NCBI GenBank assembly: GCA_041737385.1
Contig: JBGSRU010000005.1
Location: 128-64,127 of the forward strand
Direction: 5' to 3'
Source: Candidatus Saccharimonadales bacterium
GTDB taxonomy: Bacteria > Patescibacteriota > Saccharimonadia > Saccharimonadales > SZUA-47
Length of the DNA: 64,000 nucleotides
Shown here: positions 49,230-63,921 of the stretch, piece after piece
Position numbering within the stretch: position 1 is the first letter of the stretch
Layout of the letters: each line of letters starts with the position of its first letter
Program-made: the position numbers and the translations under genes
Notes under the pieces: generated by a model
Seen by the model: only the letters and a program-made list of their open reading frames with translations
Told to the model about the DNA's origin: nothing
Database searches by the model: none

Positions 49230-50238
49230 ACGAAACCACCAGTCCCGCTATCATGCTTAATAGTAGCGCTAGAACACTAACTATAATAAGCAGCTGATTT
49301 TTAAATGTCGTTTTAAGTAGGGCAATCATCTTTATGTCAATCATTGGCCCAAACACCAAAAAGCTTACGATAGAGCCTGCAGTAAATGTGCTCGCAAATG
49401 ATAGGGCGAAAAATGCATCCACATTTGCACAAATTGAAACCACGAAAGCCAGTAGTAACATTGCCAGTATTGATAACACAACATTGCTACCAATGCTTAC
49501 TAGTAGATCTCTCGGAACAAATGTTTGTACGGTTCCTGCAACTAGTGCACCAAATCCTAGCATTTTAATCATTATAAAGGCCTCATGTGTGAACGATTCA
49601 CTAAGTTTTTTTATTCTTGTTCTGTCGTGCCGCTTTGTACTTTTAGGCTTCGGCATCTCGCATAGTGCAACAAAATCAGCGGTTAAAAACTCTTGCTCAT
49701 TTTTCTTTTTTGAAATTATAAATCCTATAAAGTTAGCAATCACTAACGTTGCTAGTATACGGGATACAACGATAGAACTATCATAACTGAATGCTGCCCA
49801 AGTAGACCAAATAGTTACTGGGTTCAACACGGGTGCCGACAAGAGAAAGGTAATAGCTTCTGAAGGTTTAAGACCTTGCACCATTAAAGATCTTGATAAC
49901 GGTACATTCCCACATTCACATACGGGGAACAAGAAACCAAGAAGCGATAGAGAGGCTCTCCTGAAAATACCTTTTTTTGGCAATATTTTTTCGAATGTAT
50001 GAGCTGGCACATAAACATTCACCACGCCCGCGAGCAGTGAGCCTAGTACAAGAAACGGAAACGCCTCAACAAAGATGCTAAGCGACAATGTTATAAAATC
50101 TTGAAGTTTATTTGGTAATTCAACACCTATTCTATTTGATAAGTACAAAACCGTTATTGTAAATAATACGGTAGCCACAAGTGTAAAATATTTTTTAGAA
50201 ATAGTAACTATAGGATGCGGAAATCTGTTTATTAGCAT
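49219..50238 (-). CDS. predicted permease, PF03773/DUF318 (ArsP-like) family
   Basis: Polytopic. CECGNVP motif. Confidence 0.7.
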   Translation of the reverse strand: MLINRFPHPIVTISKKYFTLVATVLFTITVLYLSNRIGVELPNKLQDFITLSLSIFVEAFPFLVLGSLLAGVVNVYVPAHTFEKILPKKGIFRRASLSLLGFLFPVCECGNVPLSRSLMVQGLKPSEAITFLLSAPVLNPVTIWSTWAAFSYDSSIVVSRILATLVIANFIGFIISKKKNEQEFLTADFVALCEMPKPKSTKRHDRTRIKKLSESFTHEAFIMIKMLGFGALVAGTVQTFVPRDLLVSIGSNVVLSILAMLLLAFVVSICANVDAFFALSFASTFTAGSIVSFLVFGPMIDIKMIALLKTTFKNQLLIIVSVLALLLSMIAGLVVSYAF

Positions 50239-50314
50239 ACTTATATTCTATAGTATGCACGAGCATTATATACAAAGCTCTTTCAAAGAATACAAATAAT
50301 AAGTACCACTTTAT

Positions 50315-51262
50315 TTAGTTGTTTATGCTTAGTCCGTTTTCGTACAAGTAAAGCAGAGCCCAATATGAGCTAAAGTCTTTTGCAGAGTTCATATTGCCCT
50401 TAGACATCATGCTTTTGGCGAAGACACATTGTCTGAAGGCGATGAATACTGTGACGTTTACGATATTTTCTCGCTCAATACTAGCTAAAGGTCTAATCAG
50501 CTCGTATTCTTCTAAGAATGCTTCGATGGATTCTTTGTTGGGTTTACCATCAGGAAATGCCCACGTAACTAAAATTATCGCAATATCTTGAAGTTGCCAG
50601 CTTACGCCTATCTCTTCGAAGTCTAATAGAGATACTGCTTCTTCTCCGTCAAATAAGACATTGCCTAGATTGATATCTCCATGGGTTATTCCGCGTGGCA
50701 GGTTTTTTACGAAGTCTGTGAATTTCGCTTCTTTGAACTTTTTGTAATAAATATCGACTAATTCTATGAGGCGTAATGAATCTTTGTCTATATCGGTGGG
50801 CTTATAATCTTCGACTCGATCGTACAGATTAAAAATATAATCTGTATCTAGTGTTATAGCTGTGCTTGGAGGATCGTATTCCAACTTATGGAACCTTGCA
50901 ACTAACTTAGCTAGAGATTTTATATGCTGTACTTCAATAGAAATATTATTTGCAGAATCACCCTCTAAGTATTTAGTGACAACTATTGGGGTACCATCGT
51001 TTTCTAGATAGTCGTGACCATCATTTGTTTGGACTAAGCGAGGAGCAGGATATTCAGTTGCTTCGGCGTACTTCAAAAAAGGTATCATTGAATTTATCTG
51101 GTTTTTGGTTTCAAAAAGACATATTCGGGCAATATACTTTTCGCTTCCATCAGAAAACACATAGTTATCATTAGATACACCACCTTTTAGCAAAGTTAGT
51201 TCTAATATTTTCTCAAATGGATAGCGCTCTATTAAAATTGATTTAATATCTATTTTTGTCAC
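50315..51262 (-). CDS. aminoglycoside/choline-kinase-type phosphotransferase (APH family)
   Basis: ITHGDINLGNVLF catalytic loop and LLDFEE motif. GTG start. Confidence 0.8.
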   Translation of the reverse strand: MTKIDIKSILIERYPFEKILELTLLKGGVSNDNYVFSDGSEKYIARICLFETKNQINSMIPFLKYAEATEYPAPRLVQTNDGHDYLENDGTPIVVTKYLEGDSANNISIEVQHIKSLAKLVARFHKLEYDPPSTAITLDTDYIFNLYDRVEDYKPTDIDKDSLRLIELVDIYYKKFKEAKFTDFVKNLPRGITHGDINLGNVLFDGEEAVSLLDFEEIGVSWQLQDIAIILVTWAFPDGKPNKESIEAFLEEYELIRPLASIERENIVNVTVFIAFRQCVFAKSMMSKGNMNSAKDFSSYWALLYLYENGLSINN

Positions 51263-51286
51263 TTAGAAATTATCTCATACAATGGC

Positions 51287-51362
51287 TTCAATTCTAATCT
51301 GGGTATTAAAAAGTCAGAACCGAATACCAGCTCTGACTTCATCTATCACAGCTTGGCTCACC
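51287..51362. repeat. junction repeat B1
   Basis: ttcaattctaatctgggtattaaaaagtcagaaccgaataccagctctgacttcatctatcacagcttggctcacc. By eye about 70 percent identical to B2. Read on the minus strand: GAGCCAAGC, then hairpin AGTCAGA/TCTGACT, then a T-run. Confidence 0.7.
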
Positions 51363-51417
51363 ATAATATAGAATGTCATAACCACGACTAAGCAGGGCTT
51401 AATTTTGAAACGTTGTT

Positions 51418-52338
51418 CTATATCGTAATAACTACACTTCCTTTTTTACGGCCAGAGTCAACGTAGTGGTTCGCTTCGACTATGTCATCAATATCAAATG
51501 TCTTTTCGATTGTTGCTACTAGTATGCCGCCGTCGAACATATCTGCAAGTTCTTCTAAGTCGGAAGATGATTCTTTTGCAACATCAAGACTATTAACAGT
51601 AATATACTTACCGTCCACGGCAATCAGATGAGATGCTGCTGATTTCGATATTTTTCCTACAGCATCAAAGACTACATCAAAAGAACCCTTAATATCCTTT
51701 AGGCCGGTTTTTTTGTAGTTATAAACTTTCGAAGCACCGAGTTTCTTTGTGAGATCCATTCCGTCCGGACCGCACACTGCTGTAACTTCGCCGCCAAGAT
51801 ACTTGGCGATTTGTACTGCAGATGTCCCAACCGCACCGGTTGAACCGTAGATTAATACTTTCTTATTCTTACTTACACCAGCTTTACGTAAAAAGTATAG
51901 TGCTGTATTACCGCCAAATGGCAAGGCACTAGCTTCTTCGAAGCTGGCTTTCTTTGGCTTGAGAGCAATTGCTCGCTTTTCAGGCAGGGCGCAATATTCT
52001 GCAAAAGCACCGAAGCTAAAGCCAGTCATGGCATATATTTCATCCCCAACTTTGAACCTGGTAACTTCATCGCCTACTTCAACAACTTCTCCTGCCATAA
52101 CGCTTCCTTGAATTCGTTTCGGCTTTTTGATTCCGACGAGTAAACGTATGACAATCTTGCTAACAAATCCTTTTGCTCCGCTGCCTGCATCTAGTGCACG
52201 CATACGAACGTCGCCAGAATTAAGTGATGCTGCCATTACTTTAATCAGAATTTCGTTACTTTTAGGCTTTGGTTTTGCAACGTCTTTCACACTAAGGACT
52301 TCAGGCCCGCCGTATCCTTTAGCTATAACTGCTTTCAT
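51418..52338 (-). CDS. medium-chain dehydrogenase/reductase (quinone oxidoreductase-like)
   Basis: VLIYGSTGAVGTSAVQIAK Rossmann motif and a GroES-like N-domain. Confidence 0.85.
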   Translation of the reverse strand: MKAVIAKGYGGPEVLSVKDVAKPKPKSNEILIKVMAASLNSGDVRMRALDAGSGAKGFVSKIVIRLLVGIKKPKRIQGSVMAGEVVEVGDEVTRFKVGDEIYAMTGFSFGAFAEYCALPEKRAIALKPKKASFEEASALPFGGNTALYFLRKAGVSKNKKVLIYGSTGAVGTSAVQIAKYLGGEVTAVCGPDGMDLTKKLGASKVYNYKKTGLKDIKGSFDVVFDAVGKISKSAASHLIAVDGKYITVNSLDVAKESSSDLEELADMFDGGILVATIEKTFDIDDIVEANHYVDSGRKKGSVVITI

Positions 52339-52348
52339 ATGATTTCTC

Positions 52349-53008
52349 CTAATTCACCCTTTTTAATAATCTATCTAGCGATTCCAGTATGAGCTCGAGT
52401 CCAAAGTGGAAATCTTGAATTCCATCATGCGTCCCATTGATAATAGAGAGCGACATGTTGTGCATGTAGGGATGGGTTTCTTTTGGTATAACCGGCAAGA
52501 ATTGTTTCGCTGCAGCTTTAAATTCAGATGGTTGCAAAGGAAAATTTTGGCTCTGCAAATTGAATCCATATATGTAACTATCAATAGTATTCCATGCATA
52601 GTCGGTCAGTTTGTAGGAGAAACCCGCACTTAAAAGGTAGCCGATTGTTGTATCGACATACTTCAGCATGTTTGGCCCTACATTAATACCAGCAACAAAC
52701 TCATGTGCTGCCCACGGATGCTGGATGAGTGTTGCTCTCATCAAGTCAGCACGCTTGCGCAATGCATCTTTCCAGTCGAAACAAGTTTCGAGCGAGGGGA
52801 TAGATGGTGTAACTTCGTCGACCATTTCAGCGATCAATTCATTTTTGTTTTTAATGTGGTGATAGAGTGACATCGCTTCTACGTCTAATTTATCGGCCAG
52901 TCTACGCATGGAGAGGTAAGATAAGCCGTACCCATCTGCTAATGCTATAGCCTCAGCAACTATTTTGCCACGTGATAACTTTGGGTTATTTTTTTGCTTG
53001 TCTTTCAT
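52349..53008 (-). CDS. TetR-family transcriptional regulator
   Basis: N-terminal HTH LSMRRLADKLDVEAMSLYHHIKNK. Confidence 0.85.
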   Translation of the reverse strand: MKDKQKNNPKLSRGKIVAEAIALADGYGLSYLSMRRLADKLDVEAMSLYHHIKNKNELIAEMVDEVTPSIPSLETCFDWKDALRKRADLMRATLIQHPWAAHEFVAGINVGPNMLKYVDTTIGYLLSAGFSYKLTDYAWNTIDSYIYGFNLQSQNFPLQPSEFKAAAKQFLPVIPKETHPYMHNMSLSIINGTHDGIQDFHFGLELILESLDRLLKRVN

Positions 53009-53080
53009 GAAAATATGTATTAACCTTACAGTGTAAGTCTAAACAATTACATATAAATTTGCAAGTACAAAGGAGTACAT

Positions 53081-53500
53081 ATGAAAGATAAACTGGATGA
53101 ACAAAAAGTAAATGTACGCGTAAAGCTAGCTGCATTGTGGACGAGTTTTATGTTTCTCTACATCTATGTAGATTATTTTGCCCTTTATATGCCAGGTAAG
53201 ATAGAAGATATCCTGAACGGGAGAGTGTTTACATTTGATATTACACAAGGATTTATCTTTACGGCACTCTTCTTAGCTATAATTCCGATGCTGATGATTT
53301 TCCTTTCTGTTGTTCTGCCAGCTAGAGCAAATCGAATAACAAATATAATCGTGGGCACGGCTCTTATCCCTTATATGTTGTTTAATTTGGCAGGAGAAGC
53401 TTGGCCACATATGATTTTGGCCGCTGTTGTAGAAGTCGCTCTCCTTGTACTAATTATCCGTTACGCATGGAGATGGCCAAGAGCTGGAAGTCCATCCTAA
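53081..53500 (+). CDS. four-TM membrane protein (DUF6326-like), divergent from the TetR gene
   Basis: VKLAALWTSFMFLYIYVDYF resembles the family's N-terminal motif. Tentative. Confidence 0.45.
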   Translation: MKDKLDEQKVNVRVKLAALWTSFMFLYIYVDYFALYMPGKIEDILNGRVFTFDITQGFIFTALFLAIIPMLMIFLSVVLPARANRITNIIVGTALIPYMLFNLAGEAWPHMILAAVVEVALLVLIIRYAWRWPRAGSPS

Positions 53501-53558
53501 TCAAAAAGCTCACCTAATCCTTGGGCTTGGATTACTCGCTGCAACAATATCCTTCGAT

Positions 53559-53633
53559 TTCAATTTCAGTCTGGGCCCAAAAAAATTATGACCGAATCAA
53601 AGTTCTGACTTCATCTATTACGGCTTTGCCATC
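53559..53633. repeat. junction repeat B2 (degenerate)
   Basis: ttcaatttcagtctgggcccaaaaaaattatgaccgaatcaaagttctgacttcatctattacggctttgccatc. Confidence 0.65.
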
Positions 53634-53660
53634 TAGAGCATGCCTCTTAGTCGCTTGTGT

Positions 53661-53686
53661 ACTATAGGGGTGGAGGACGTTCGAAC
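53661..53686. repeat. junction repeat fragment C1 (..GGAGGACGTTCGAAC)
   Basis: The gaggacgttcgaac block is shared with 56847-56860. A near-copy gaaggacgtttgaac lies at 54221-54235. Confidence 0.6.
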
Positions 53687-53691
53687 GAGTA

Positions 53692-54183
53692 TCACATCTT
53701 GACAATAGACCAGTTGCCCTCAATGCGTTTTAAAGTTAGTATTTTTTGAGAGTTGCTATTGAGCTTATATTGCACCACAGCGTTTCTATAGCCACCCTTT
53801 GTCCAAATAAAATCAGTAACATTACTTTTCTCATGAGATTGTACAAAAGTTTCTAGTTCATATTTTACTTCAAGCTTCGCATTTACGACTATCGGCTCAC
53901 CTTTATTGATGTCTCTAGCAGCATAATCACACTGCTTCGTAAAGTCTGAGTACACAGTAGGATTGGTAGAATGATTGGTGTATCTTGATGGTTCAGGGAA
54001 CAGGTACAACTTTCCATAGAATGAATGTACAAATTTTCGCTCGTTTTTCTGTAGATTATCAAATTCACTCTGAGATATTAGTTGCAAATTCCAACGTTTA
54101 ACTAGTTCACCTTTCTTGAAATTCCGACCTGCGTACAGTCCTTTGCCGTCTAGTTTACCTTTACCAATAGTTATGTCAGACAT
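53692..54183 (-). CDS. SET-domain protein (putative lysine methyltransferase)
   Basis: GKGLYAGRNFKKGELV, RYTNHSTNPTV (NHS-type motif), and DINKGEPIV. Confidence 0.6.
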   Translation of the reverse strand: MSDITIGKGKLDGKGLYAGRNFKKGELVKRWNLQLISQSEFDNLQKNERKFVHSFYGKLYLFPEPSRYTNHSTNPTVYSDFTKQCDYAARDINKGEPIVVNAKLEVKYELETFVQSHEKSNVTDFIWTKGGYRNAVVQYKLNSNSQKILTLKRIEGNWSIVKM

Positions 54184-54197
54184 ATTGGTAGTATAGT

Positions 54198-54235
54198 AAA
54201 AAACATTATATTTATATAGTGAAGGACGTTTGAAC
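54198..54235. repeat. junction repeat C2 (A-type hairpin joined directly to the GAAGGACGTTTGAAC block)
   Basis: aaaaaacattatatttatatagtgaaggacgtttgaac. 19 of 23 positions are identical to the A-type left arm. Confidence 0.6.
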
Positions 54236-54242
54236 TAAACTA

Positions 54243-54932
54243 TTAACCTACACTGGGTCTTTTAACAACTAAATCTAATTCTGGTTTGTCTTTTTGCAGA
54301 TTAACAATAATTTTTTCTACTAGGTAATCTGGCGACATAAAATTTGTAAAGTCTTCTGGTAACGCTTCATCGTGTAAGTGAGTTTTTGTACCACCTGGGT
54401 AAACAGACAGTATTTTTACTGGATTACTTTTATTTTCTGCTCGTAGAGCATCTATATACCCTCGAAGAGCCCATTTACTAGACGCATACAACTTTGCTCC
54501 AACAGACCTAGATGCATCGAGGGCAGCACTTGATAAAAGATTTAATATGTAACCTTCCTTCATATTTAATAATGCTGTTCTAGAACCAAGCACAGCACCG
54601 AAGAAATTTACATCAAACATCTCGTGTGCTCTGTTCATATCCAATAATACTGTTCTGGGAAATTTCATAAATAGGCCAGCACTATTTACCCAAATATCGA
54701 TATTGCCAAAAGTTTTAATGGTAAATTCTGCAAGGTCTCTTAAGCCCTGCTCATTACGAACGTCAACAACAAATGACTTAGCACCAATTTCTTTTGCTGC
54801 ATCATCAAGTGTTTTTTTAGTTCGGCTTGCAATAACTACGTTTGCACCCTCAGCAACTAAACTTTTTGCAAATTCCTTGCCTATGCCTTGGCTGCCGCCA
54901 ACCACAACGACAGTTTTATTATTTAAGTTCAT
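54243..54932 (-). CDS. SDR-family oxidoreductase
   Basis: VVVVGGSQGIG, NSAG and YASSKWA motifs. The start is reassigned to the ATG at 54932, 6 nt downstream of TATAAT. Confidence 0.85.
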   Translation of the reverse strand: MNLNNKTVVVVGGSQGIGKEFAKSLVAEGANVVIASRTKKTLDDAAKEIGAKSFVVDVRNEQGLRDLAEFTIKTFGNIDIWVNSAGLFMKFPRTVLLDMNRAHEMFDVNFFGAVLGSRTALLNMKEGYILNLLSSAALDASRSVGAKLYASSKWALRGYIDALRAENKSNPVKILSVYPGGTKTHLHDEALPEDFTNFMSPDYLVEKIIVNLQKDKPELDLVVKRPSVG

Positions 54933-54948
54933 AGAATAATTATAACCC

Positions 54949-54990
54949 AAACAAAAACACTATGTTTCTATAGTGCTTATGCTTGACTCC
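54949..54990. repeat. junction repeat A1 (left part)
   Basis: aaacaaaaacactatgtttctatagtgcttatgcttgactcc. On the minus strand it reads as hairpin CACTAT/ATAGTG plus TTTTTGTTT. Confidence 0.85.
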
Positions 54991-55240
54991 AGAGTGAGAT
55001 AGTCCAGTAGACTATTGCAAGGGGACACACTCTAGAAAACTTGTTTTCTAAGACGTGGTGACGAGGTCGCGGAACGTGACTGGATATAGGTCACACAACA
55101 AATCTGTGCGCCGAGTGTACTCGGGCAACATGCTTGTTATCGAACCTAGCGACCCACTGTCTTGCAAGGCAATCCAGGGTCACAGGTGAATCAGTCCCGA
55201 AAATAAACTAAAAACAGACCCTGATGGGTCTGGTCTTAGT
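54991..55240 (-). ncRNA. candidate structured RNA nested inside junction repeat A1 (about 250 nt, unknown class)
   Basis: No ORF. At least 6 local hairpins: agagtg/cactct, atagtc/gactat, tagaaaac/gttttcta, gtgac/gtcac, ccgag/ctcgg, cagaccc/gggtctg. Flanked by ttgactc and ttggctc. Confidence 0.3.
55198..55232 (-). terminator. rho-independent terminator downstream of the 356-aa gene
   Basis: On the minus strand: CAGACCC-ATCA-GGGTCTG followed by TTTTTAGTTTATTTT. Confidence 0.6.
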
Positions 55241-55270
55241 TTGGCTCGCAGTTGTGGACATGATGCGAAC
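55241..55270. repeat. junction repeat A1 (right part, hairpin H1)
   Basis: ttggctcgcagttgtggacatgatgcgaac matches A2 positions 56482-56510. Confidence 0.8.
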
Positions 55271-55318
55271 TGTGTAGATAGACTTTTTTATATTTTTTAT
55301 TTCATTCAAACCTTGTAG

Positions 55319-56389
55319 CTATTGTGTTTTATCGACTTCTTTCACGAATATCCATTCAGAATTAGTATCTGTACGAGTAAGATAGATCAGAGGAAATTCA
55401 GATAAACCATCCACACTATAATTTACTTCAACATTCTTATCATCCTTTTCCCACACAATCCTGGAAACCTTAACATCTGAGATGTTTTTAATAGACTCAA
55501 TTTTTGACACGATTGCGGCTTGCTGTTTCTTAGCTTCATTATAGCTCGCAATACTTACACAGTTTAGTCCATCAAAATTGTTTATGCCACTATGAGTAGC
55601 TTGGCATAACAAATACTGGTTCGTGTAGGTATTCTCGGAATAATACTCATTGTCTTCGGGAGCTATCAAATCTGAAAGAACGAAACCTTTACTTTTTATA
55701 TATTCTTCAATTTCAGCTTTGGTAACATCAGATGCTTGATAGCGAACCCCGAATAACTTCCTTATACTTAAAGGAAGTTCAGTAAGATATGCATTTCCGG
55801 GTTGTTCAGTTAAATATTCTGGATTAGGAAGAGATTCAGACCATTCTGTAAGACCTTGGATGGTTTCTTCGATAGAGCTCCAGCTAGTATCTGCGAGATT
55901 ATTCGATACATTTGTAGTTGTTTCTTTGTTCTCATCCACTGGTGTCAAAGCTACAATTGCAATTAAAAGTCCCACCAAAAATATCGCAGATAAAATTAAA
56001 CTTATCTTGAGCCATTTTCTGGATTTTTTCTGAAGATTATCCATCGAAGGATAACTATTATTCTTAGTTTTATCTTTAGCATAACCTATGTAGATAAAAA
56101 TAATACCTACAAAAAAAGGTATTAAGTATAAGTAATTTTGGGCTAAAAATATCATCGAACCAGATGTAATTGAAATCAAATAACCAATAATGTAGTACAT
56201 CCTTGCAGTACTAGATAACTTAACATTAGGAGGTTGCTGAGGTTGCTGAGGTTGCTGAGGTTGCTGAGGTTGCTGAGGTTGCTGAGGTTGCTGAGGTTGC
56301 TGAGTAACCTCAGTTTGCTGTGGAGGTGTACTGCTAGTCGTATTTATATTATCCTGTTGTTGATTATCTTCATTATTATCCATAAACAC
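55319..56389 (-). CDS. membrane protein with N-terminal Q/P-rich low-complexity region
   Basis: 356-aa ORF with (QQP)x8, several predicted TM segments (not counted) and a C-terminal soluble domain. No family recognised. Confidence 0.6.
   Translation of the reverse strand: MFMDNNEDNQQQDNINTTSSTPPQQTEVTQQPQQPQQPQQPQQPQQPQQPQQPPNVKLSSTARMYYIIGYLISITSGSMIFLAQNYLYLIPFFVGIIFIYIGYAKDKTKNNSYPSMDNLQKKSRKWLKISLILSAIFLVGLLIAIVALTPVDENKETTTNVSNNLADTSWSSIEETIQGLTEWSESLPNPEYLTEQPGNAYLTELPLSIRKLFGVRYQASDVTKAEIEEYIKSKGFVLSDLIAPEDNEYYSENTYTNQYLLCQATHSGINNFDGLNCVSIASYNEAKKQQAAIVSKIESIKNISDVKVSRIVWEKDDKNVEVNYSVDGLSEFPLIYLTRTDTNSEWIFVKEVDKTQ
56232..56303. repeat. perfect 9-bp tandem repeat (ggttgctga) x8 encoding (QQP)8
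   Basis: Read directly from the sequence. Confidence 0.95.
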
Positions 56390-56447
56390 TCCAGTTATTA
56401 TTTAAACTATAGCATTATAGAGATAAGTAGGGAATATATAGAGAGCA

Positions 56448-56510
56448 AAACAAAAACACTATGTTTCCATAGTGCTTATGCTTGGCTCGCAGTTGTAGAC
56501 ATGATGCGAA
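56448..56510. repeat. junction repeat A2 (uninterrupted form)
   Basis: aaacaaaaacactatgtttccatagtgcttatgcttggctcgcagttgtagacatgatgcgaa. Confidence 0.85.
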
Positions 56511-56548
56511 TTATTAAATAAAAAGCGATAGGGGATAGAGTCAAATTG

Positions 56549-56779
56549 CTACCAAGGTATAATTAGAGCAAAGAACCAGCTAATAGCGTCACCAATACTA
56601 TTTGAACCTTTTCTCATCATGAATGCACCCATTAACATAACTGCTAAGCCACCAATAATTCCTAGAATTTTGTAAAATAAAGTGAAATCATTTAGGACCG
56701 ATACAACAACTGCAAAAATTCCAACAATTACCAAAAAGAAACCCATAACTACAAGAAGTGCTTTTACAATTGTTTTCAT
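56549..56779 (-). CDS. small two/three-TM membrane protein
   Basis: 76 aa, hydrophobic. TGAGATAAT lies 6 nt upstream of the ATG. Confidence 0.5.
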   Translation of the reverse strand: MKTIVKALLVVMGFFLVIVGIFAVVVSVLNDFTLFYKILGIIGGLAVMLMGAFMMRKGSNSIGDAISWFFALIIPW

Positions 56780-56796
56780 ATAGCCATTATCTCACA

Positions 56797-56860
56797 AAAC
56801 AAAAACACTATGTTTCTATAGTGCTTATGCTTGGCTCTCTGCAGTTGAGGACGTTCGAAC
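56797..56860. repeat. junction repeat A3
   Basis: aaacaaaaacactatgtttctatagtgcttatgcttggctctctgcagttgaggacgttcgaac. Confidence 0.85.
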
Positions 56861-56910
56861 TAGTCTTTTTGACGATTCATTCTGTAAACTATAAGTGGTA
56901 TTATCGTATT

Positions 56911-57294
56911 ATGAACAAAAATATTCTTATTAAAATTCTTTCTTTGGTCATTTCGGTTATTGGAATTTTTATTGCACTGAAATTTGTATCTATAAGAGAC
57001 TATAAGTACATTATTATTGTTGGGAGTGGGTTGTTACCATTACTTGCCTTCAAGTCAAAAGAGCCAAAGGATTCTACAGATATTGAAAAGTCTGAGTTTT
57101 TAAAAAGCATTCTATTAGCTACGGTAATCTTTTTTAGCGGTTTAGGGTTTGTGTTTATCATAAGTTTTGCGTCTAATCTTGAGACCAAGTCAATTACTAG
57201 GGAGATTCCGTTCATAGTAGGGATGTTGGTAGTTTCATTGGCCACAATATTTATTATCACTAAAGCTATATACAGGTATTATAAGTCAAAATAG
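56911..57294 (+). CDS. four-TM membrane protein, hypothetical
   Basis: Start reassigned to the ATG at 56911 (MNKNILIKILSL), 6 nt after TGgTATTAT. The upstream part of the track ORF overlaps repeat A3. Confidence 0.5.
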   Translation: MNKNILIKILSLVISVIGIFIALKFVSIRDYKYIIIVGSGLLPLLAFKSKEPKDSTDIEKSEFLKSILLATVIFFSGLGFVFIISFASNLETKSITREIPFIVGMLVVSLATIFIITKAIYRYYKSK

Positions 57295-57314
57295 TTCTAT
57301 CTCCAGCTTGGGGT

Positions 57315-57370
57315 AAACAAAAACAGAAGCCTTACGACTTCTGTTATTTATAACGCTTATGCTTGGCTCC
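57315..57370. repeat. junction repeat A4 (left part; same flanks, different hairpin stem)
   Basis: aaacaaaaac-AGAAGccttacgaCTTCT-gttatttataacgcttatgcttggctcc. Confidence 0.8.
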
Positions 57371-57513
57371 GGAGACTGGATGGGAGGGACCTAATTCGCC
57401 TGTTTGTCGTAGTACGACAGGGAATTAGCGAACCAATTGCTACGCAATAATCTGGTTCGAGGCCAGAACTCGGAAGTAAATAAAATAGCCCCACAAATGT
57501 GAGGCAATTTATT
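57371..57513 (-). ncRNA. candidate structured RNA nested inside junction repeat A4 (about 140 nt, cloverleaf-like)
   Basis: Three hairpins closed by a stem: ctaattcgcctg..cagggaattag, ttgc-tac-gcaa, and tctgg-ttcgagg-ccaga. The terminal hairpin is fully paired only as minus-strand RNA (GCCUCACA/UGUGGGGC with a U-G pair). Confidence 0.3.
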
Positions 57514-57542
57514 TGGCTCGCACTGGCAAACGAACTGCGAAC
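57514..57542. repeat. junction repeat A4 (right part, hairpin H1 variant)
   Basis: ttggctcgcactggcaaacgaactgcgaac. It has the same TCGCA/TGCGA stem as A1b and A2 but a different loop. Confidence 0.75.
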
Positions 57543-57811
57543 GGCTAGTATGGACTACGACAAAAGCGAAGTTCGTAACATCAAGGGACTGCTACTTAGC
57601 GTGGCATAGCCCCCCTATGCCTTGACCTTTGATATTTCAGAAAGCTCGTAAACGCACATACTACCTAAAAATGTGTCGCTATCAAAAAATCATTTGTTTT
57701 CCGAAATAGCCCAACAACTACAACGCACTAACAGTGGTAGCTTTGTTGGGAATAATTGTTAGAAAAAGACGATATTTTCAGCACATACCCTTACGGCTGT
57801 AAAATAGAAAT

Positions 57812-58762
57812 ATGACAAAGCAGATAACAAAGAAACAGCACTTCGCACCACGCTTTTATTTCAAACGGTTTGCTGTTGATAATATGTTACAGACTTTAGA
57901 TATTCAAAAAGGCAAACTTATAAAAGCACGACCTTATAGCGGTGTTTGTTATGCCGACTTTTACTACGCTGTTGAAACTGGAAAAGAAGACGAAACAAGC
58001 CAAGTATTTGAACAGTATTTTAGCGACATTGAAGATAAGTTTGCCAAAGAGTATGACGCCATCGTTGACGCAATATGGAACTATCGCCCACTAACAGACC
58101 AGCAGTTAGATATTCTAGCGTGGTTTATGGCTTCCCTTTGGATTAGAAGTCCGCATATGCGAAGACAGGTAAACAAGACTATGGCTGATGGTATGAAGCA
58201 AATAACTACATTAATGGCTTCACACCCAAACTTTACCGAAGGGGCTAAAGAAGGTTTAGAAAAAGAGGGACATAAAGTATCTGATGAGCAGATTGAAAAC
58301 GCTAGAAAGACGCTTGAAAGTGGCGAGTATGAACTAACCTTTGAGAATAACATCAACCACCTAAATCTGATTGCACACTGTGAAGAGTTTCATAGGTGGT
58401 TTCTTATAAAAAAATGGCGGTTTTATTTAGCCAAAGGCTCAAAAAAGTTCATAACTACCGATACACCAGTGATTGAAGTATTCAATAAAACTGGTAAAAC
58501 AATGATTGAAAAAATGTACAGCAACCATATAGCCCAAAGACGACACTACTTTGCTTTGACACCCGAAATACTAATTGAGCTTATTGACCCTCTAACTCCT
58601 GGCAAGAAGCAAAAACGGCACGCACTATCAGACGATAGAGCGGTGATTGAAATAAACCGCCTACTTGTTATCTACTCAAAAGATTATGCCTACGCCAATG
58701 ACAAAGAGTATCTTGAAGATTTACTACAATTCTATACAGGCGTACCACAGGAAGTGATATAG
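57812..58762 (+). CDS. DUF4238-family protein (family of the single-gene anti-phage system Rst_DUF4238)
   Basis: The N-terminal KKQHFAPRFYFKRFA matches the H(Y/F)xP(Q/R)FYL(K/R)xF signature I recall for DUF4238. Size 316 aa. Confidence 0.6.
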   Translation: MTKQITKKQHFAPRFYFKRFAVDNMLQTLDIQKGKLIKARPYSGVCYADFYYAVETGKEDETSQVFEQYFSDIEDKFAKEYDAIVDAIWNYRPLTDQQLDILAWFMASLWIRSPHMRRQVNKTMADGMKQITTLMASHPNFTEGAKEGLEKEGHKVSDEQIENARKTLESGEYELTFENNINHLNLIAHCEEFHRWFLIKKWRFYLAKGSKKFITTDTPVIEVFNKTGKTMIEKMYSNHIAQRRHYFALTPEILIELIDPLTPGKKQKRHALSDDRAVIEINRLLVIYSKDYAYANDKEYLEDLLQFYTGVPQEVI

Positions 58763-58856
58763 GGGGGGGTAGTCGCCCCTTGTTCTAGCGTTTAGAGACT
58801 CCGCCGTGTATATACCTAATTTGTGGGAGCAGAAAAAACCAAGTGTTTTTCTATAC

Positions 58857-59609
58857 CTAGACTGACAACCTTTTGTCTTCGTATTCTTTCTGTTCAATCG
58901 CCTTTTGTTTTATCTTATCAAGTATGTCCCTCGGTCCAGATAGGTAGCTCTCAAACTCTTTAATGTTTGAGTCCTTAATCCAAAGCTGACCCTCGCCAAC
59001 ATTGCCCCTATGCTGACCTTTTGAGAAATACTTATTACTTTCAACATCGTGGCTAGAAAGCACCCAATACCTAATAGCGTCACGCCATACGCCGACCCAG
59101 ACAAAAACATCACAGTGTGCAGGTTTTATCTGCTGAAAGTTCATATCAAAACCGTGTGTAGAGTCGCTAGAAAGGGCTTTGTTAATAAGCGAGTCGCCAC
59201 TTTTTCTTTTGACAGCCCGTGAAGCTTTTACTTCAATGCGAACACCCTCATACCAAAAATCATAATCGCCTGCATAAGCGTCGTGGTAGTCTTTTGAGGG
59301 ACGCTTTAGCTCAGGTGCAAGCTCATTGAGGTGTCGTTGAGCCCACGTTTCGCCGAAAGTTCTAGGTGCTGTAATTTCAAAAATATACAGATACTTGTTT
59401 TTCTCAAGATAGGCATTTCTTATCTCAAGGTATTGGTCTAGGTTTAATATGTCTTCCGCAATCAAGTGGCTAATAACATACTCAAACTTGTTAAAAGGAA
59501 ACACAGAGTAAAGACTGTCTAGTGCTTCATCGCTCAAATCATACTTATCGCCACACTTGTCGTGTAACCTTTTAATTTCTGCCTTTAATTCTTCAATCAG
59601 TTGTTCCAT
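58857..59609 (-). CDS. putative type II restriction endonuclease (PD-(D/E)xK)
   Basis: GDYDFWYEGVRIEVKAS fits D..(11-13)..ExK. Overlaps the methylase stop by 17 nt. Confidence 0.45.
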   Translation of the reverse strand: MEQLIEELKAEIKRLHDKCGDKYDLSDEALDSLYSVFPFNKFEYVISHLIAEDILNLDQYLEIRNAYLEKNKYLYIFEITAPRTFGETWAQRHLNELAPELKRPSKDYHDAYAGDYDFWYEGVRIEVKASRAVKRKSGDSLINKALSSDSTHGFDMNFQQIKPAHCDVFVWVGVWRDAIRYWVLSSHDVESNKYFSKGQHRGNVGEGQLWIKDSNIKEFESYLSGPRDILDKIKQKAIEQKEYEDKRLSV

Positions 59610-61335
59610 ATACTTCCTTCTTTATACACTTTATCTCAATAGCACTTATCTTGTAATAGTTGTAGATAAAATCTTGTAGCTTTTTATCGTCTGTTTTTCC
59701 TAAAATAACGTCATCAACCATATTGCTAACAACCTTATCTGTCTTGCTGTCTATTTCAGGAAACGGTAGCTGTAACAAATTGCCTTTCAAGATTTTAATC
59801 TCACGAAATAGCTTCATATACAAATACTGATAAAGTTCGGAGTTAAGAAAAGCAGAAACAGACTTTACCGACATATTAGGCACGTTTGGAACTAGTATAT
59901 TTGCACTATTTAGAAAAAGGCTTGCCGAATCATCAACAGCGAAGACTAGTTTTTTAGAAATGAACTTATAGACAAGTTTTGGTTTTGCTCTGTAAATCTC
60001 GTCTTTGGCAACCTGTTGAAGTTGACTGCGGTCATATCTTATGTAGTACTTTGAAGGCTTCAAAGTATAAGGAGCAATTTCTTTACCTGTGTATATTTTT
60101 TCTAGGTCTTTCTTTGCTTCAAGATGAAGCTTCTCTTTATTGCTACCCGTAACAATCCCTAATGCCCAAATACTCTCACTCAAATCGTAACGCTTTTGTT
60201 CTAGAACCTTTTCTATGATTGACTCGTCTGTTGAGTCAGATAGTCGGAAGATATAGTTAGGGTTATCGCTATAAACTGCCTTTTCTACGCCCCACGAACG
60301 ATTAGCTACGTCAATTTCAACTTCACTTGAGTTGCCTGAATAGTTTGCCGTGAGTGCCACATACTTAGTAGTTACTCCGCTAAACAGGTCAGCGTACATT
60401 TTTATAGCAACTAAATCAGCTTTGGTCAGCAGATAATGACGAATATCTCTGTGAGTTTTTACATTAAGAATTGACTCGGGTAGCAGAAACCTTAATTGAC
60501 CAGATTTTTTCAATCGTCTGTGTGCTTCTACCAAGAAACAAGAAAATGTTTCCCCTGATATAATCTCAGGATAATTTTTTGTATTGGTTACTGAAGCACC
60601 CCAAGGTGGATTAGTAACTATATAGTCAAACTTTAGGTCTAAATCTTTTCCGTTAGAGCTAAGAAAGTCATCATTGAATATGTTGACGACCTTTGCCTTA
60701 GGAAACCTTAGAAAATAATTGAACTTAGCAATCATAACTGCGATAGGGTCAATGTCAGTTGCAAAGATATTTTCTGGCTTGATATTAGGTATGTTCAAGA
60801 GGTAAACAAGACTACCGCAACAAGGGTCTAATACTTTACTCGCCGATGTAAGTTTTATGTCTTCAACCATATCTCTCACGACACTCTTAGGCGTGTAGTA
60901 AGAGCCTTGGGCATTTTTGACACCCTCTTGTAATAGACATTGGTAAATTAAGCCCAGTAAATCACTTTCGTCTTTCGGAAAATCGTCTATATTCAAATCT
61001 TCAATAACTGAATACCCACAGTCGTCAAGAAACTTGCTAATCAAAGGGTTACTAGCTACATTTGAGTCTTTTACAATGCCGTTTAATGCTAATAGTTTTA
61101 CGCCAACTGAAAATAACACTTTACCTGTGTCGTCATACTTTTCAGCAAGCTTTTGAGTTATGTCTTCAATTTTCTTAATGTTCGGCTTGCTGTCAAAGTA
61201 CTCAACAGGAGTTATACGCTTTGTGGAAAGCCTTTTATTCGCCCTTGATACTAGCTTGCCTTCGGTTGTGTTTACCCCTAGCTTTTCCCAGTTTCTCTTC
61301 GTGGCTTCTGATACTTGGTTATTTGTTTTCGGCAT
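59593..61335 (-). CDS. N6-adenine DNA methyltransferase (gamma class, Eco57I/TaqI-like with C-terminal specificity domain)
   Basis: Motif I VLDPCCGS lies upstream of motif IV TNPPWG. Confidence 0.85.
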   Translation of the reverse strand: MPKTNNQVSEATKRNWEKLGVNTTEGKLVSRANKRLSTKRITPVEYFDSKPNIKKIEDITQKLAEKYDDTGKVLFSVGVKLLALNGIVKDSNVASNPLISKFLDDCGYSVIEDLNIDDFPKDESDLLGLIYQCLLQEGVKNAQGSYYTPKSVVRDMVEDIKLTSASKVLDPCCGSLVYLLNIPNIKPENIFATDIDPIAVMIAKFNYFLRFPKAKVVNIFNDDFLSSNGKDLDLKFDYIVTNPPWGASVTNTKNYPEIISGETFSCFLVEAHRRLKKSGQLRFLLPESILNVKTHRDIRHYLLTKADLVAIKMYADLFSGVTTKYVALTANYSGNSSEVEIDVANRSWGVEKAVYSDNPNYIFRLSDSTDESIIEKVLEQKRYDLSESIWALGIVTGSNKEKLHLEAKKDLEKIYTGKEIAPYTLKPSKYYIRYDRSQLQQVAKDEIYRAKPKLVYKFISKKLVFAVDDSASLFLNSANILVPNVPNMSVKSVSAFLNSELYQYLYMKLFREIKILKGNLLQLPFPEIDSKTDKVVSNMVDDVILGKTDDKKLQDFIYNYYKISAIEIKCIKKEVYGTTD

Positions 61336-61340
61336 ATTCC

Positions 61341-61529
61341 CTAATTACTTTTTTCAATAAACTTTATTAAATCGACTTTTTTGTATCGCATAGCCTTACG
61401 ACTACCTAGACGGAACGCCTTCAACGTGCCGTTTCTGTCCCAATTACGAAGCGTTGGTTGACTGACTTGTAGAAACTTGCTTGCTTGGGCGAGTGTCAGA
61501 TATTCAGGTTCGTCATTTTTAGCGTTCAT
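61341..61529 (-). CDS. excisionase/MerR-type HTH DNA-binding protein
   Basis: YLTLAQASKFLQVSQPTLRNWDRNG is an HTH_17-type motif. 62 aa. Confidence 0.7.
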   Translation of the reverse strand: MNAKNDEPEYLTLAQASKFLQVSQPTLRNWDRNGTLKAFRLGSRKAMRYKKVDLIKFIEKSN

Positions 61530-61548
61530 ACTACCAATATCATATAAT

Positions 61549-61572
61549 AAGTACTAAGTACTTGGAAGTACT
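61549..61572. promoter_or_regulatory. three AAGTACT repeats in a divergent promoter region
   Basis: aagtact at 61549, 61556 and 61566. TATAAT at 61544-61549. Confidence 0.4.
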
Positions 61573-61590
61573 AAGAAAAGACGTAGCGAA

Positions 61591-62340
61591 ATGGCAGATG
61601 ACAAAAGTAGTAAAGAAGTTTCACTAAACCTAGATGACCCAAAATATAGTAAGGGGTTGTCCGTTGACGAGTGGCAAAAACTTTCCAAGCAAAACCCTAC
61701 TACTCTAACGCCTTCACAACAAAAAACACTTACCCAAGCAAACGATAGTATTAGAGAAGCCACGAAAGGCATAAGCACCCAACTGGCAAGTATAGTAAAG
61801 GGTGTTTCAATGCCCGACATACGCTCACTTATGCCAGATATTCCAAAGTCGCCAGCCTTGTCTATTTCCAGCCTATCGTTACCACCGATTGAAACCTATC
61901 AGCCAAACTTTGATGATATAGACTTTACACCAGATACAACGATGGTTGATAACCAAATCAAACAGACCGCTTTATTAGAACGCCTGCTTGAAGTCCAAAG
62001 CCAACAGCAACAAAATAGCGATTTGATGAAACTGATTGAGCCACGTTATGACCGCAAGAAACGTGTTATCACGTTCGCCAATACTCAAACAAGGCTCGTT
62101 GCTGACAGCGATAATGAAATTATATGTAAAAAGTTATTTTGGGACGGACGCCCCGTAAGACGCCCTGTTGAAAAAGGCGACATTATGGAACTGCTAGGTA
62201 CTACTGACAAGAAGGCTTTCTATAACAAGGTTGCTTCCTTGAATAAACTCATTGAAAAAACGACAGGTGTTGATAAGCTATTTGATTTTGTTGATAAAAA
62301 ACTCTGGTTCAATACCAAATACGTAGAATTACCTCTGTAA
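61591..62340 (+). CDS. hypothetical protein
   Basis: 249-aa ORF. No family recognised. Confidence 0.5.
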   Translation: MADDKSSKEVSLNLDDPKYSKGLSVDEWQKLSKQNPTTLTPSQQKTLTQANDSIREATKGISTQLASIVKGVSMPDIRSLMPDIPKSPALSISSLSLPPIETYQPNFDDIDFTPDTTMVDNQIKQTALLERLLEVQSQQQQNSDLMKLIEPRYDRKKRVITFANTQTRLVADSDNEIICKKLFWDGRPVRRPVEKGDIMELLGTTDKKAFYNKVASLNKLIEKTTGVDKLFDFVDKKLWFNTKYVELPL

Positions 62341-62376
62341 GACGTCTGCGGACACCTACTTTCACATACTGGAAGT

Positions 62377-62541
62377 ATGGACAACCAAATAGAGCCAAAG
62401 CCAAATACAACCGTCATTGACGAGCCTGAATTGGTATTAGACGAAGACGAGCAGTTTCAACTCGCCAAGTTTCTTGACGCTCTTTTGGAAGCCGATATGA
62501 CCAATAAAAGTAACGAAAGGCAACGCAAGCAATGTTTGTAA
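62377..62541 (+). CDS. small acidic hypothetical protein (54 aa)
   Basis: Hand translation gives MDNQIEPKPNTTVIDEPELVLDEDEQFQLAKFLDALLEADMTNKSNERQRKQCL*. Below the track's cutoff. Confidence 0.3.
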   Translation: MDNQIEPKPNTTVIDEPELVLDEDEQFQLAKFLDALLEADMTNKSNERQRKQCL

Positions 62542-62831
62542 GTGAAGTCAGCGTAATGCCCGTCAAGCCAAACAATGGCTTGATAGCCATAGCCAGCGTT
62601 GTTATAAACGACTGTATCTACCTCAATTCTATTGCCGTTTATACCAAACTAGACGGCTCGTATCGCCTGCTTTACCCGACAAAACAAGTAGGTAATAAGT
62701 CGGTTGGTTATCACTACCCAATCAACCGACCAACTAGCAGGTTGATAGAAGACGCCGTGTTCAAAAAATGTAGCGAACTATTTCAAGGAAGTAACGATGA
62801 TAGACACGGTAAAAATACTTTTGACTTATAG
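62532..62831 (+). CDS. SpoVG-like protein
   Basis: VSEVSVMPVKPNNGLIAIASVVINDCIYLNSIAVY parallels the SpoVG N-terminus (..V.....G.L.A.ASI..D..F.V..I.V). Confidence 0.5.
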   Translation: MFVSEVSVMPVKPNNGLIAIASVVINDCIYLNSIAVYTKLDGSYRLLYPTKQVGNKSVGYHYPINRPTSRLIEDAVFKKCSELFQGSNDDRHGKNTFDL

Positions 62832-63921
62832 CAGTCAGCCAAAATGGGTAACGGAAGCCAAGCTATTCACTAACGTAGACGCAACTAAAGGCGTCTTCGT
62901 GGCATACAACAACCCAAGTAGTGCCTATAAGAAACTAGGCATTTACCAGCCACGCCTTACATATACCGAAAGACCAAGAGGTAGGCATATCAAGTCGTAT
63001 CAACTTGCCGTTGAGTTTTCCGCACCGAAGCTACTTTTCAGCAACAACTTCACGGAACTAACGGACGCCGACTTTGACGCCGTTATTGCCAAGCTGTCAG
63101 AAGTACTACGCACGACTTATGGCGTTTGGGTATTTCCGCACTTATTGACTAATGCCCAAGTGGGTAAAATAGACTACTCAAAAAACATCGTGTTTGATGA
63201 CCACACACCAGTTTCAACCATTACAGAAATACTGCGTAAAGCTGACATATCACGCCGTTACGATGTTCAGCATACCAACTTCAAGAATGGCGGACACGTC
63301 TATCACATACACACTAACAGCCTTGATATTGCCTTCTATGATAAGGTTGCCGATTTACGCCAAAACAAAGTCAGTGAAAAGCGTAGTTATGAAAAAGGTG
63401 GCTATACACAGTTGAGCCTACTAGACGAATTAGAAAAGCAAAAGACAGTCAGCGTTGCTCGTTTTGAGATACGACTAAATGGCGTTGCCAAACTACGCAA
63501 AGAACTAAAAGTTATTGGTGTTGATAGTACCGACATTACCTTTCGCACACTTTTCAAGACCGACATATCACGCAAGGTACTACTACGGCACTGGAAGAAC
63601 ATATTTGATGAACTGCCCAAAGCACCGTTTGCCGTATTAGACACTGCTGAACAAAACCTTATTTCGTATAAACAATCATACCCATACGCCAAGCCAGCCG
63701 AAACAGCCTTTGCTGTAATGCTCGCTATGATACGCAAAGACCACGATGACGAACGCTATGTTCGCAATGTCATAGAAGAATTGTTTGGTAAGCACACCTA
63801 CTACCGATACAAACGCAACGGACGCTCGCCACCTACCAAAACCCAACTCAAAACTTTACTACATATAGAAGCCACACTGACAGAAATGAAACCTGTGAGT
63901 ATTGACGACTATACGCTGTAA
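62797..63921 (+). CDS. replication initiation protein, Rep_trans / gene II-like (rolling-circle type)
   Basis: MIDTVKIL N-terminus. LDIAFYDK and ARFEIRL resemble the YDK and R.E.el motifs of Rep_trans. VYHIHT could be an HUH-like motif. Confidence 0.55.
   Translation: MIDTVKILLTYSSQPKWVTEAKLFTNVDATKGVFVAYNNPSSAYKKLGIYQPRLTYTERPRGRHIKSYQLAVEFSAPKLLFSNNFTELTDADFDAVIAKLSEVLRTTYGVWVFPHLLTNAQVGKIDYSKNIVFDDHTPVSTITEILRKADISRRYDVQHTNFKNGGHVYHIHTNSLDIAFYDKVADLRQNKVSEKRSYEKGGYTQLSLLDELEKQKTVSVARFEIRLNGVAKLRKELKVIGVDSTDITFRTLFKTDISRKVLLRHWKNIFDELPKAPFAVLDTAEQNLISYKQSYPYAKPAETAFAVMLAMIRKDHDDERYVRNVIEELFGKHTYYRYKRNGRSPPTKTQLKTLLHIEATLTEMKPVSIDDYTL

Follow-up and report, generated by a model that had tools for sequence, protein, structure and literature searches.

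A 64-kb stretch of a Candidatus Saccharimonadales genome (contig JBGSRU010000005.1), referred to here as the window, raises the question of how a run of small accessory modules, separated by copies of a related repeat, came to lie side by side in one place. The array in question covers 51.3–57.5 kb (coordinates are window positions unless a locus name precedes them), and the initial annotation offered three explanations for it: serial site-specific integration at one att site, an integron-like cassette array that uses a novel site, or a small RNA/terminator family spread by recombination. The first of these fits the data, with the 3' end of tRNA-Asn(GTT) as the site and a large serine recombinase (LSR) gene found at the locus. 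We consider, with a probability of roughly 0.78, that the region is the distal part of a tRNA-Asn(GTT) 3'-end integration hotspot that was shaped by serial site-specific integration and decay. Judged from the sequence, the junction repeats are recombination (att) scars, and the newest occupant is an LSR element with a 7-bp core.

Junction repeats and the 3' end of tRNA-Asn

The repeat copies named in the initial annotation (A1 to A4, B1, B2, C1 and C2) are all present, and they occur between 51.3 and 57.5 kb only. The 15-mer GCTTATGCTTGGCTC has three exact copies (at 56474, 56823 and 57355) and one copy with a single mismatch (at 54975), and its only further match in the rest of the 64 kb is a chance hit with three mismatches at 48487. 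Similarly, TTGGCTCGCA-N13-TGCGAA is found at 55241, 56482 and 57513, GAGGACGTTCGAAC is found at 53673, 54222 and 56847, and B1 and B2 share 75% identity across 71 nt. Pattern scans of the 64 kb revealed no real copy of these blocks outside the array. The statement that every intergenic boundary carries a repeat was overstated, as the MDR/TetR (52339–52348) and TetR/DUF6326 (53009–53080) boundaries are free of junctions; the repeats delimit modules, not individual genes. Likewise, A1 and A4 had each been described as one paired unit, and each turns out to be two junctions split by a remnant of 251 nt and 143 nt, respectively. C1, C2 and B2 are decayed junctions in which the core GAGCCAAG is lost or mutated. 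Other details were borne out by the sequence: A4 has a different hairpin between the same flanks, A3 is not downstream of any minus-strand gene and sits between divergent genes, and the gene labels APH, MDR, TetR, DUF6326, SET and SDR are all backed by Pfam.

Related loci were collected by a one-genome-per-species scan with the pattern AAACAAAAAC-N(10–40)-GCTTATGCTTGGCTC, which returned 46 loci of 8 kb each, nearly all titled as Saccharibacteria or Patescibacteria metagenome-assembled genomes. On the minus strand the conserved part reads GAGCCAAGCATAAGC, a hairpin and then TTTTTGTTT. The invariant core GAGCCAAG corresponds to the last six bases of tRNA-Asn(GTT), GAGCCA (tRNA positions 71–72, the discriminator G and CCA), followed by two trailer bases. 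An intact tRNA-Asn(GTT) directly precedes the conserved unit in 16 genome loci, where the tRNA called by ARAGORN ends at core position 6, and the tRNA-Asn of this genome ends at the same position. Because GAGCCA represents the last six tRNA bases in the loci with an intact tRNA, the core can be identified as the tRNA-Asn end, and the hairpin with its T-run as the trailer/terminator of the tRNA (class T1). ARAGORN reports neither a tRNA nor a tmRNA in the window itself. The intact tRNA-Asn(GTT), a minus-strand gene, is located some 1.5 kb outside the window, at 8697–8771 of L048, a longer contig of the same genome that was found by exact-protein look-up (window coordinate = L048 coordinate + 56803). 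The unit itself does not read as the 3' half of a tRNA; other genomes show the real tRNA upstream of the core. In one locus (L045, 4505–4560) the core also occurs inverted (as GAGCCAAAC when the other strand is read), directly after the T1 terminator of an intact tRNA-Asn, and inverted tRNA-end-like fragments are also present in two further loci (L044 and L021).

Each junction is composed of an approximately 25-nt arm of the upstream module, the 7–8-bp core GAGCCAA(G) and a terminator that opens the next module. In loci without a tRNA before the core, the window included, the upstream position is mostly taken by one of a few arm classes. The class-1 arm, GGTTATAACTTCCTCTATTGTTGT, is found in about 10 loci, the class-2 arm is a pseudo-tRNA end, GTTCGTGACCTGTAAGCT, and the class-3 arm, GTTCGCA..TGC, covers both the TCGCA..TGCGA hairpin of the initial annotation and the GTTCGAACGTCC block; a true partial tRNA end is a fourth upstream type. 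The terminators fall into the classes T1, T2 (B1 and B2 in the window), T3 and others. Every arm class occurs with every terminator class, always joined at GAGCCAA, which identifies this sequence as a recombination breakpoint.

The features of the locus, outward from the tRNA and thus in descending coordinates, are as follows:

57513–64000, continuing to about 65505 in window-equivalent coordinates: LSR integrative element, 8 kb
57513–57544, minus strand: attR of the LSR element, core GAGCCAA (57513–57519) and attP-type arm GTTCGCAGTTCGTTTGCCAGTGC
57370–57512, minus strand: M1, 143-nt remnant module with its own terminator, GCCTCACATTTGTGGGGC and T-run
57315–57388, minus strand: A4 proximal, variant terminator (AGAAG..CTTCT) and core (57362–57369); 57362–57380 is a 19-nt exact repeat of this genome's tRNA-Asn 3' end (ATCCAGTCTCCGGAGCCAA)
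56911–57294, plus strand: gene for a 127-aa membrane protein
56797–56863, minus strand: A3, T1, core (56830–56837) and class-3 arm GTTCGAACGTCCTCAACTGCAGA
56549–56779, minus strand: cassette gene for a 76-aa membrane protein, preceded by TGAGATAAT with the ATG 6 nt on
56448–56510, minus strand: A2, T1 (56448–56480), core GAGCCAAG (56481–56488) and class-3 arm (56489–56510)
55319–56383, minus strand: cassette gene for a Q/P-rich membrane protein
55241–55275, minus strand: A1 distal, core GAGCCAA(A) and class-3 arm GTTCGCATCATGTCCACAACTGC
54990–55240, minus strand: M5, 251-nt remnant module with its own terminator, 48% GC
54949–54989, minus strand: A1 proximal, core GAGTCAAG (54982–54989), trailer CATAAGC and T1, after which TATAAT and, 6 nt on, an ATG follow
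54243–54932, minus strand: SDR cassette gene, ATG at 54932 (Pfam adh_short, 1.5e-38; gene call in locus L001)
54198–54235, minus strand: C2, in which a class-3 arm runs directly into a degenerate T1 hairpin, about 20 nt including the core being deleted (by-eye comparison with A3)
53692–54183, minus strand: SET-domain cassette gene (Pfam SET, 1.3e-7)
53661–53686, minus strand: C1, class-3 (LSR-type) arm remnant GTTCGAACGTCCTCCAC without a core
53559–53633, minus strand: B2, degenerate T2 with the mutated core GGCAAAG, recognised by its likeness to B1
51418–53500: three-gene cassette of DUF6326 membrane protein (plus strand), TetR (minus strand) and MDR dehydrogenase (minus strand), all by Pfam
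51360–51387, minus strand: class-1 arm GGTTATGACATTCTATATTATGGT, of the GGTTATAACTTCCTCTATTGTTGT family, end of the TetR/MDR cassette
51352–51359, minus strand: B1 core GAGCCAAG
51287–51351, minus strand: B1 terminator, class T2, AGTCAGAGC..GTTCTGACT with T-run and the conserved tail CCCAGAnTAGAAtTGAA
50315–51262, minus strand: APH phosphotransferase, most distal cassette gene (Pfam APH, 4.4e-25)

Core genes follow beyond APH, and no junction separates it from the ArsP permease gene among them; an APH homologue in another locus (L010) is followed by a class-3 arm, GAGCCAAG and T1. Among the genes of the array modules, only those for the 127-aa protein and DUF6326 oppose the tRNA orientation. 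The GC content of the array is 38%, compared to 42% in the flanking core genome (50 kb to the left of the array). M5 contains a tRNA-Asn-like variable-loop/T-arm fragment (GGGTCGCTAGGTTCGA), and its fold has a z-score of −6.1, a value that includes both flanking terminators.

The T1 hairpin is under clear structural constraint. In 39 distinct copies, 97.7% of the cells of its 8-bp stem are paired and six of the eight pairs show compensatory changes, a result that none of 500 shuffles reached. With its GAAA-type loop, invariant trailer and invariant T-run (a U-run in the RNA), the element is predicted to be an intrinsic terminator, and a terminator scan of the window yielded hits at 56477–56454, 57345–57322, 55232–55215 and 57505–57488. 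At least 12 further Saccharibacteria loci have a conserved T2, and in each of them it follows GAGCCAAG. About 75 nt of T2 are conserved, a tail (CCCAGAnTAGAAnTGAAAC) past the T-run among them, which is far more than termination would require. Within the window T1 and T2 are restricted to the array, and in 780 kb, where the listed sequences were read by eye, neither was found away from the tRNA-derived core. Since T1 was never seen apart from this core there, a generic terminator that follows most genes genome-wide, which the initial annotation had named as the finding that would overturn its view, does not account for the family. Furthermore, 31 of 65 T1 junctions run into a predicted extended −10 box (TGnTAnnnT) with an ATG 4–11 nt on; in the window, the T-run merges into such a box at 56780–56800 and 54933–54950. 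The short distance between box and start codon suggests that leaderless transcription of cassette genes may be widespread in Saccharibacteria.

The large serine recombinase element and its attachment sites

The initial annotation proposed to look beyond 64 kb for a recombinase, and such a gene indeed begins inside the window. Its ATG is at 63991 and the remainder was read from L048 (7188–8738), giving a 516-aa protein with the Pfam domains Resolvase (PF00239, 2.7e-13), Recombinase (PF07508, 9e-18) and Zn_ribbon_recom (PF13408, 2.2e-9). The protein matches a PHROG integrase family at 1.5e-69 and carries a visible N-terminal ARVSDPRQ motif. The 3' end of the gene overlaps the intact tRNA-Asn(GTT) on the opposite strand, with attL and the tRNA at 8696–8771 of L048; the element therefore spans 57513 to about 65505. 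Its sites read as follows:

attL: ..CCAGTCTCCG|GAGCCAA|TTTTGTG.. (tRNA, core, LSR 3' end)
attR: ..TTTGCCAGTGC|GAGCCAA|ATAAATT.. (class-3 arm, then core)
predicted attP of the resident element: GTTCGCAGTTCGTTTGCCAGTGC|GAGCCAA|TTTTGTGAAAGAG
predicted empty site: tRNA-Asn|GAGCCAA|ATAAATTGCC

Comparison with 24 metagenomic LSR relatives supports this layout. Sixteen of them adjoin tRNA-Asn(GTT), which is complete in 14 cases and truncated in two, and three distant relatives (L071, L072 and L074; about 47% identity) adjoin the 3' end of tRNA-Leu(TAG) in the same tail-to-tail arrangement. Two more (L054 and L057) are in the attP form, with GAGCCAA placed between the end of the LSR gene and a class-3 arm. 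One of these, the approximately 10.7-kb contig L054, carries arm|GAGCCAA|LSR end and has a 55-nt terminal overlap, and it is therefore circular. A further two relatives lie beside a class-2 arm (L053 at 11515, 97% identity, with no tRNA within 10 kb; L056 at 7540, 83% identity), and this arm appears to serve as a secondary attB, and the last relative (29% identity) has an unrelated context. In five attL/attR pairs GAGCCAA is the only identity and a class-3 arm is present at each attR. The arm and core of the resident attR also make up attP in L054 and L057 and attR in L055, L059, L061 and L073. Because the attP-form relatives and these five pairs carry them, the class-3 arms are the attP arms of the resident LSR family. 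For the more distant relatives (54–67% identity) no attR was found within 10 kb. No LSR relatives were detected in viral contigs, and phmmer against all PDB chain sequences gave no match.

The LSR open reading frame (ORF) crosses its own att site. In the integrated form the 516-aa protein ends in ..SQNWLRRLDSNQRPRS, a tail that is encoded by antisense tRNA-Asn, and in L054 the ORF reads through attP to give 534 aa ending in ..SQNWLAVANELRTAS..LLLSVA; integration thus alters the C-terminus of the recombinase.

The rest of the element points to a mobile backbone with cargo. The initial annotation had named a Rep_trans-like gene in the element at the end of the array, which was right in kind: 57812–58762 encodes a DUF4238 protein (Pfam) and not a Rep, and the Rep-like gene is at 62797–63921. 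Its 374-aa product has no Pfam hit itself, and many of its 293 homologues carry Phage_CRI/G2P, including P0026, a 61%-identical homologue that matches at 7.8e-7, above the Pfam cut-off. Because of these homologues the backbone is of rolling-circle type, and the element seems to resemble a small integrative rolling-circle replicon. It also contains an excisionase-like HTH_17 gene (62 aa), a 249-aa ORF, a SpoVG-like gene and, at 58857–61335, a TaqI-like N6-adenine methylase (580 aa) overlapping a 250-aa ORF without a family match, which is probably the cognate endonuclease. Genes for phage structural proteins were not identified in it.

Cassettes in other species and competing explanations

Among the Saccharibacteria loci recovered by means of the repeat, 31 have two or more junctions, at a median spacing of 743 nt, and in these multi-junction loci 81 ORFs are oriented with the tRNA and 24 against it. 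Individual cassettes recur with fixed boundaries. Cassette c2, which encodes a 183-aa protein, begins exactly 58 nt after the core and T1 in four species and ends exactly 92 nt before a class-3 arm and core in both species in which the downstream junction was captured. Its neighbours vary, with a tRNA, a class-1 arm or a class-3 arm upstream and the terminator T2 or T3 downstream. Five other cassettes (c8, c19, c25, c34 and c41) are each common to loci with different neighbours. Moreover, the MDR/TetR cassette of the window is 71% identical over 1.7 kb to a copy in L028 that is bounded by T2 and a class-1 arm, and the alignment begins at 51353, inside the B1 core. The cargo elsewhere is typical of accessory and defence genes and includes NUDIX, MFS, zeta toxin, HSP20, methylases, reverse transcriptase, type I restriction-modification and NACHT proteins.

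In the hotspot explanation, the array would have grown by successive insertions at the tRNA end that pushed older modules outward. The modules that have a class-3 arm and no recombinase (A1 distal, A2, A3, C1 and C2) could be either decayed LSR elements or hitch-hiking cassettes. The latter may have moved in trans, for example if an LSR element and its neighbours were excised as one circle and the LSR element alone was later excised in a new host, a sequence of events that would yield exactly the terminator..arm units seen. Other types of element may stand behind the 19-nt tRNA repeat of A4, the class-1 arm of B1 and the class-2 arms found elsewhere, and C1, C2 and B2, having lost their cores, would now be fixed in place.

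Several observations weigh against this explanation. The class-3 arms of the window agree with the arm of the resident element at only about 14 of 23 positions. The recombinase that owns the class-1 or class-2 arms was found neither among the flanking genes nor in viral-contig scans (class 1, no hits; class 2, one hit, without a recombinase); the genes beside these arms are cargo such as a reverse transcriptase, DUF2779, HNH, HEPN/Toprim, type I restriction-modification and a NACHT protein. Integrases are absent from the 25 most frequent Pfam families of 150 ORFs from 26 loci, and a tblastn search with the LSR detected a similar gene in only one of the 46 8-kb genome loci (L043; 26% identity, without clear flanking junctions). 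As LSRs are present in almost no sampled arrays, cassette movement by the LSR is only inferred. The 46 loci were chosen by the T1 pattern, so the frequency of arrays among them is biased upward. Exact-protein look-ups for strain-level presence or absence returned same-sample contigs broken at the repeats, or nothing. To our knowledge, canonical LSRs recombine only attP with attB, and insertion beside an existing attL, or the movement of modules that carry a terminator instead of a P' arm, would accordingly need relaxed site choice or another enzyme.

The same limit bears on a more ambitious proposal, namely that the array is not just passive debris and belongs to a dedicated, active integron-like system in which a serine recombinase acting in trans captures and excises promoter-bearing single-gene cassettes at GAGCCAA and tRNA-Asn takes the part of attI. 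The short and mostly co-oriented modules, the appearance of one cassette with identical boundaries and differing neighbours in four species, the free combination of arms and terminators at one core and the presence of arrays in many Saccharibacteria speak for it. On the other hand, the arrays show no consistent link to a recombinase, cassette circles were not observed, free exchange of cassettes is hard to square with the directionality of LSRs, and the decayed junctions (C1, C2 and B2) and remnants (M1 and M5) fit accretion and decay; overall we find this system possible and rather doubtful. Its fullest form, which we put forward tentatively and hold to be doubtful as well, is that Saccharibacteria possess a serine-recombinase counterpart of the integron, in which the 3' end of tRNA-Asn serves as a universal landing pad and self-contained cassettes (a terminator, an extended −10 promoter, an often leaderless gene and a 25-nt arm) are inserted, excised and reshuffled at GAGCCAA by LSRs acting in trans from small integrative rolling-circle replicons. 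Of the integron-like array at a novel site that was suggested initially, the short, mostly co-oriented cassettes shuffled at a fixed core remain; no IntI was found among the ORFs from 45.9 kb onward and no attC core at the junctions read by eye, and many cassettes are preceded by promoter-like motifs.

Explanations without site-specific recombination fare less well. Natural transformation followed by homologous recombination, with the tRNA-Asn gene and the 45–75-nt T1/T2 as homology arms as in the minimal mobile elements of Neisseria, would agree with the 85–100% conservation of T1 and T2 across species and with the ComEC-type competence protein encoded within 1–46000 of the window. It is a weaker rival because unrelated arms meet unrelated terminators at the same 7–8-bp core, which is a signature of site-specific recombination; in addition, the attL/attR pairs of LSR elements have only 7 bp in common, and we consider this route unlikely. 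That the unit is chiefly a functional RNA (a family of terminators, small RNAs or 5' leaders) which recombination has spread, and which is linked to mobile DNA only secondarily, is quite improbable. The strong covariation of the hairpin, its loop and U-run, the invariant T1 trailer and T-run and the promoter-like box that is often next to it are all expected of such an element. However, T1 is one component only and was never seen without the tRNA-derived core, A3 follows no co-oriented gene, and searches of Rfam gave no match at gathering score in the 64 kb and chance-level hits only at E-values up to 10 in 50–58 kb. As the core comes from the 3' end of the tRNA itself and the arm has been shown to be an attP arm, this explanation covers the terminator alone, and the terminator or small RNA family suggested initially describes that one component. 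Finally, M5 and M1 are short inserts with TTGGCTC/TTGACTC on both sides, as would be left by elements of the miniature inverted-repeat transposable element (MITE) or palindromic insertion sequence IS200/IS605 type that insert at TTGGCTC and duplicate it. The apparent duplication is the tRNA end, though; a repeat scan of 50000–58500 shows no inverted repeat linking the ends of M5 or M1, no transposase is found among the ORFs scanned at 45.9–64 kb, and neither remnant has a further copy in the window or a homologue in 75 loci by blastn or tblastx, except for a 27-nt M5 match in a similar 165-nt mini-module (L044, 2748–2913). Transposition of this kind is highly improbable.

Comparison with known mobile islands

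The hotspot shares features with several known systems. In staphylococci, SCCmec-type (staphylococcal cassette chromosome mec) islands are integrated at the 3' end of rlmH/orfX by the Ccr large serine recombinases. As in SCCmec, a single conserved gene appears to receive, at its 3' end, a circular element inserted by an LSR; elements are stacked in tandem, some of them without a recombinase, and short direct repeats of the integration site flank each one. In contrast to SCCmec, the end of a tRNA gene takes the place of rlmH as the target, the elements are much smaller and many modules hold a single gene, and the host belongs to the Saccharibacteria of the candidate phyla radiation (CPR). The locus may be described as an SCC-type composite island by analogy and not by membership.

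Integrons consist of the recombinase IntI, the attI site and arrays of cassettes with attC sites, which carry inverted RYYYAAC/GTTRRRY cores, and one common promoter, Pc. The similarity lies in the ordered, mostly co-oriented short accessory-gene cassettes, each bounded by a recombination site, and in the occurrence of the same cassettes in different orders in different hosts. Unlike in integrons, the flanking recombinase is of the serine type and not IntI, the array is anchored at a tRNA gene, and predicted promoter-like motifs stand before many cassettes in place of a single Pc. No tyrosine recombinase of the IntI type was found among the ORFs at 45.9–64 kb or in the 9 kb beyond; the ORFs at 1.5–45.9 kb were screened by the list of 25 most frequent families only, and a recombinase may lie there. 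RYYYAAC/GTTRRRY cores are not seen at the boundaries when the junctions are read by eye, no pattern scan having been made. Because these defining features are lacking, integrons offer a functional comparison only.

Phages and elements with serine integrases of the phiC31, Bxb1, A118 and TP901-1 type usually target protein-coding genes. The recombinase described here resembles theirs in its Resolvase, Recombinase and zinc-ribbon domains, in attP arms of about 25 bp and in attP and attB sites that are alike only at a short central core. It differs from them in its target, which is the last bases of tRNA-Asn for this family and tRNA-Leu for a sister group, in that its ORF runs over the att site so that the C-terminus changes on integration, and in the G2P-like rolling-circle backbone of an element that lacks identified phage structural genes.

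Tycheposons and their tRNA-linked islands in Prochlorococcus mostly use tyrosine recombinases, with a minority of large serine recombinases (bioRxiv 10.1101/2020.12.28.424599). They likewise lie beside a tRNA where newcomers push older elements outward, contain scattered remnants and partial tRNAs, and combine integrase and replication modules with cargo (bioRxiv 10.1101/2020.12.28.424599). The features by which such islands are recognised are found here as a full tRNA-Asn, a 19-nt partial repeat and the remnants M1, M5, C1 and C2. Whereas tycheposons have longer partial-tRNA repeats (bioRxiv 10.1101/2020.12.28.424599), the dominant core at this locus is only 7–8 bp at the extreme 3' end, and the modules are often single genes, each starting at a conserved terminator with, in many cases, a promoter-like box behind it. 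By analogy, SCCmec composite islands and tycheposon islands are the nearest counterparts.

Full-text literature searches yielded no description of tRNA-Asn arrays or of this LSR family in Saccharibacteria. Like other CPR bacteria, these organisms have tiny genomes, and there are few descriptions of how accessory genes reach them; the present data point to one conserved hotspot. The tRNA-Asn end targeted by the element is conserved across the Saccharibacteria loci examined, and defence, resistance-type and membrane genes gather there as small modules that are predicted to be separately transcribed and that recur in different species. If the recombinase is active, the element, with its defined 7-bp crossover core and attP arm, could be used directly for site-specific integration in organisms that have few genetic tools. 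If cassettes without a recombinase are mobilised in trans, the locus would bring to a new phylum a counterpart of integrons or SCC islands that works with a serine recombinase, and if the integron-counterpart explanation holds, reduced-genome episymbionts would possess a dedicated platform for gene capture.

Outside the array, 1–46000 of the window is ordinary core genome with dTDP-rhamnose/epimerase genes, ABC transporters and two PIN-domain proteins, as well as a 2038-aa ORF at 19512–25628. Within the array, the Q/P-rich gene contains nine tandem copies of a 9-nt unit (GAGGTTGCT) at 56212–56328, which could represent a length-variable protein repeat.

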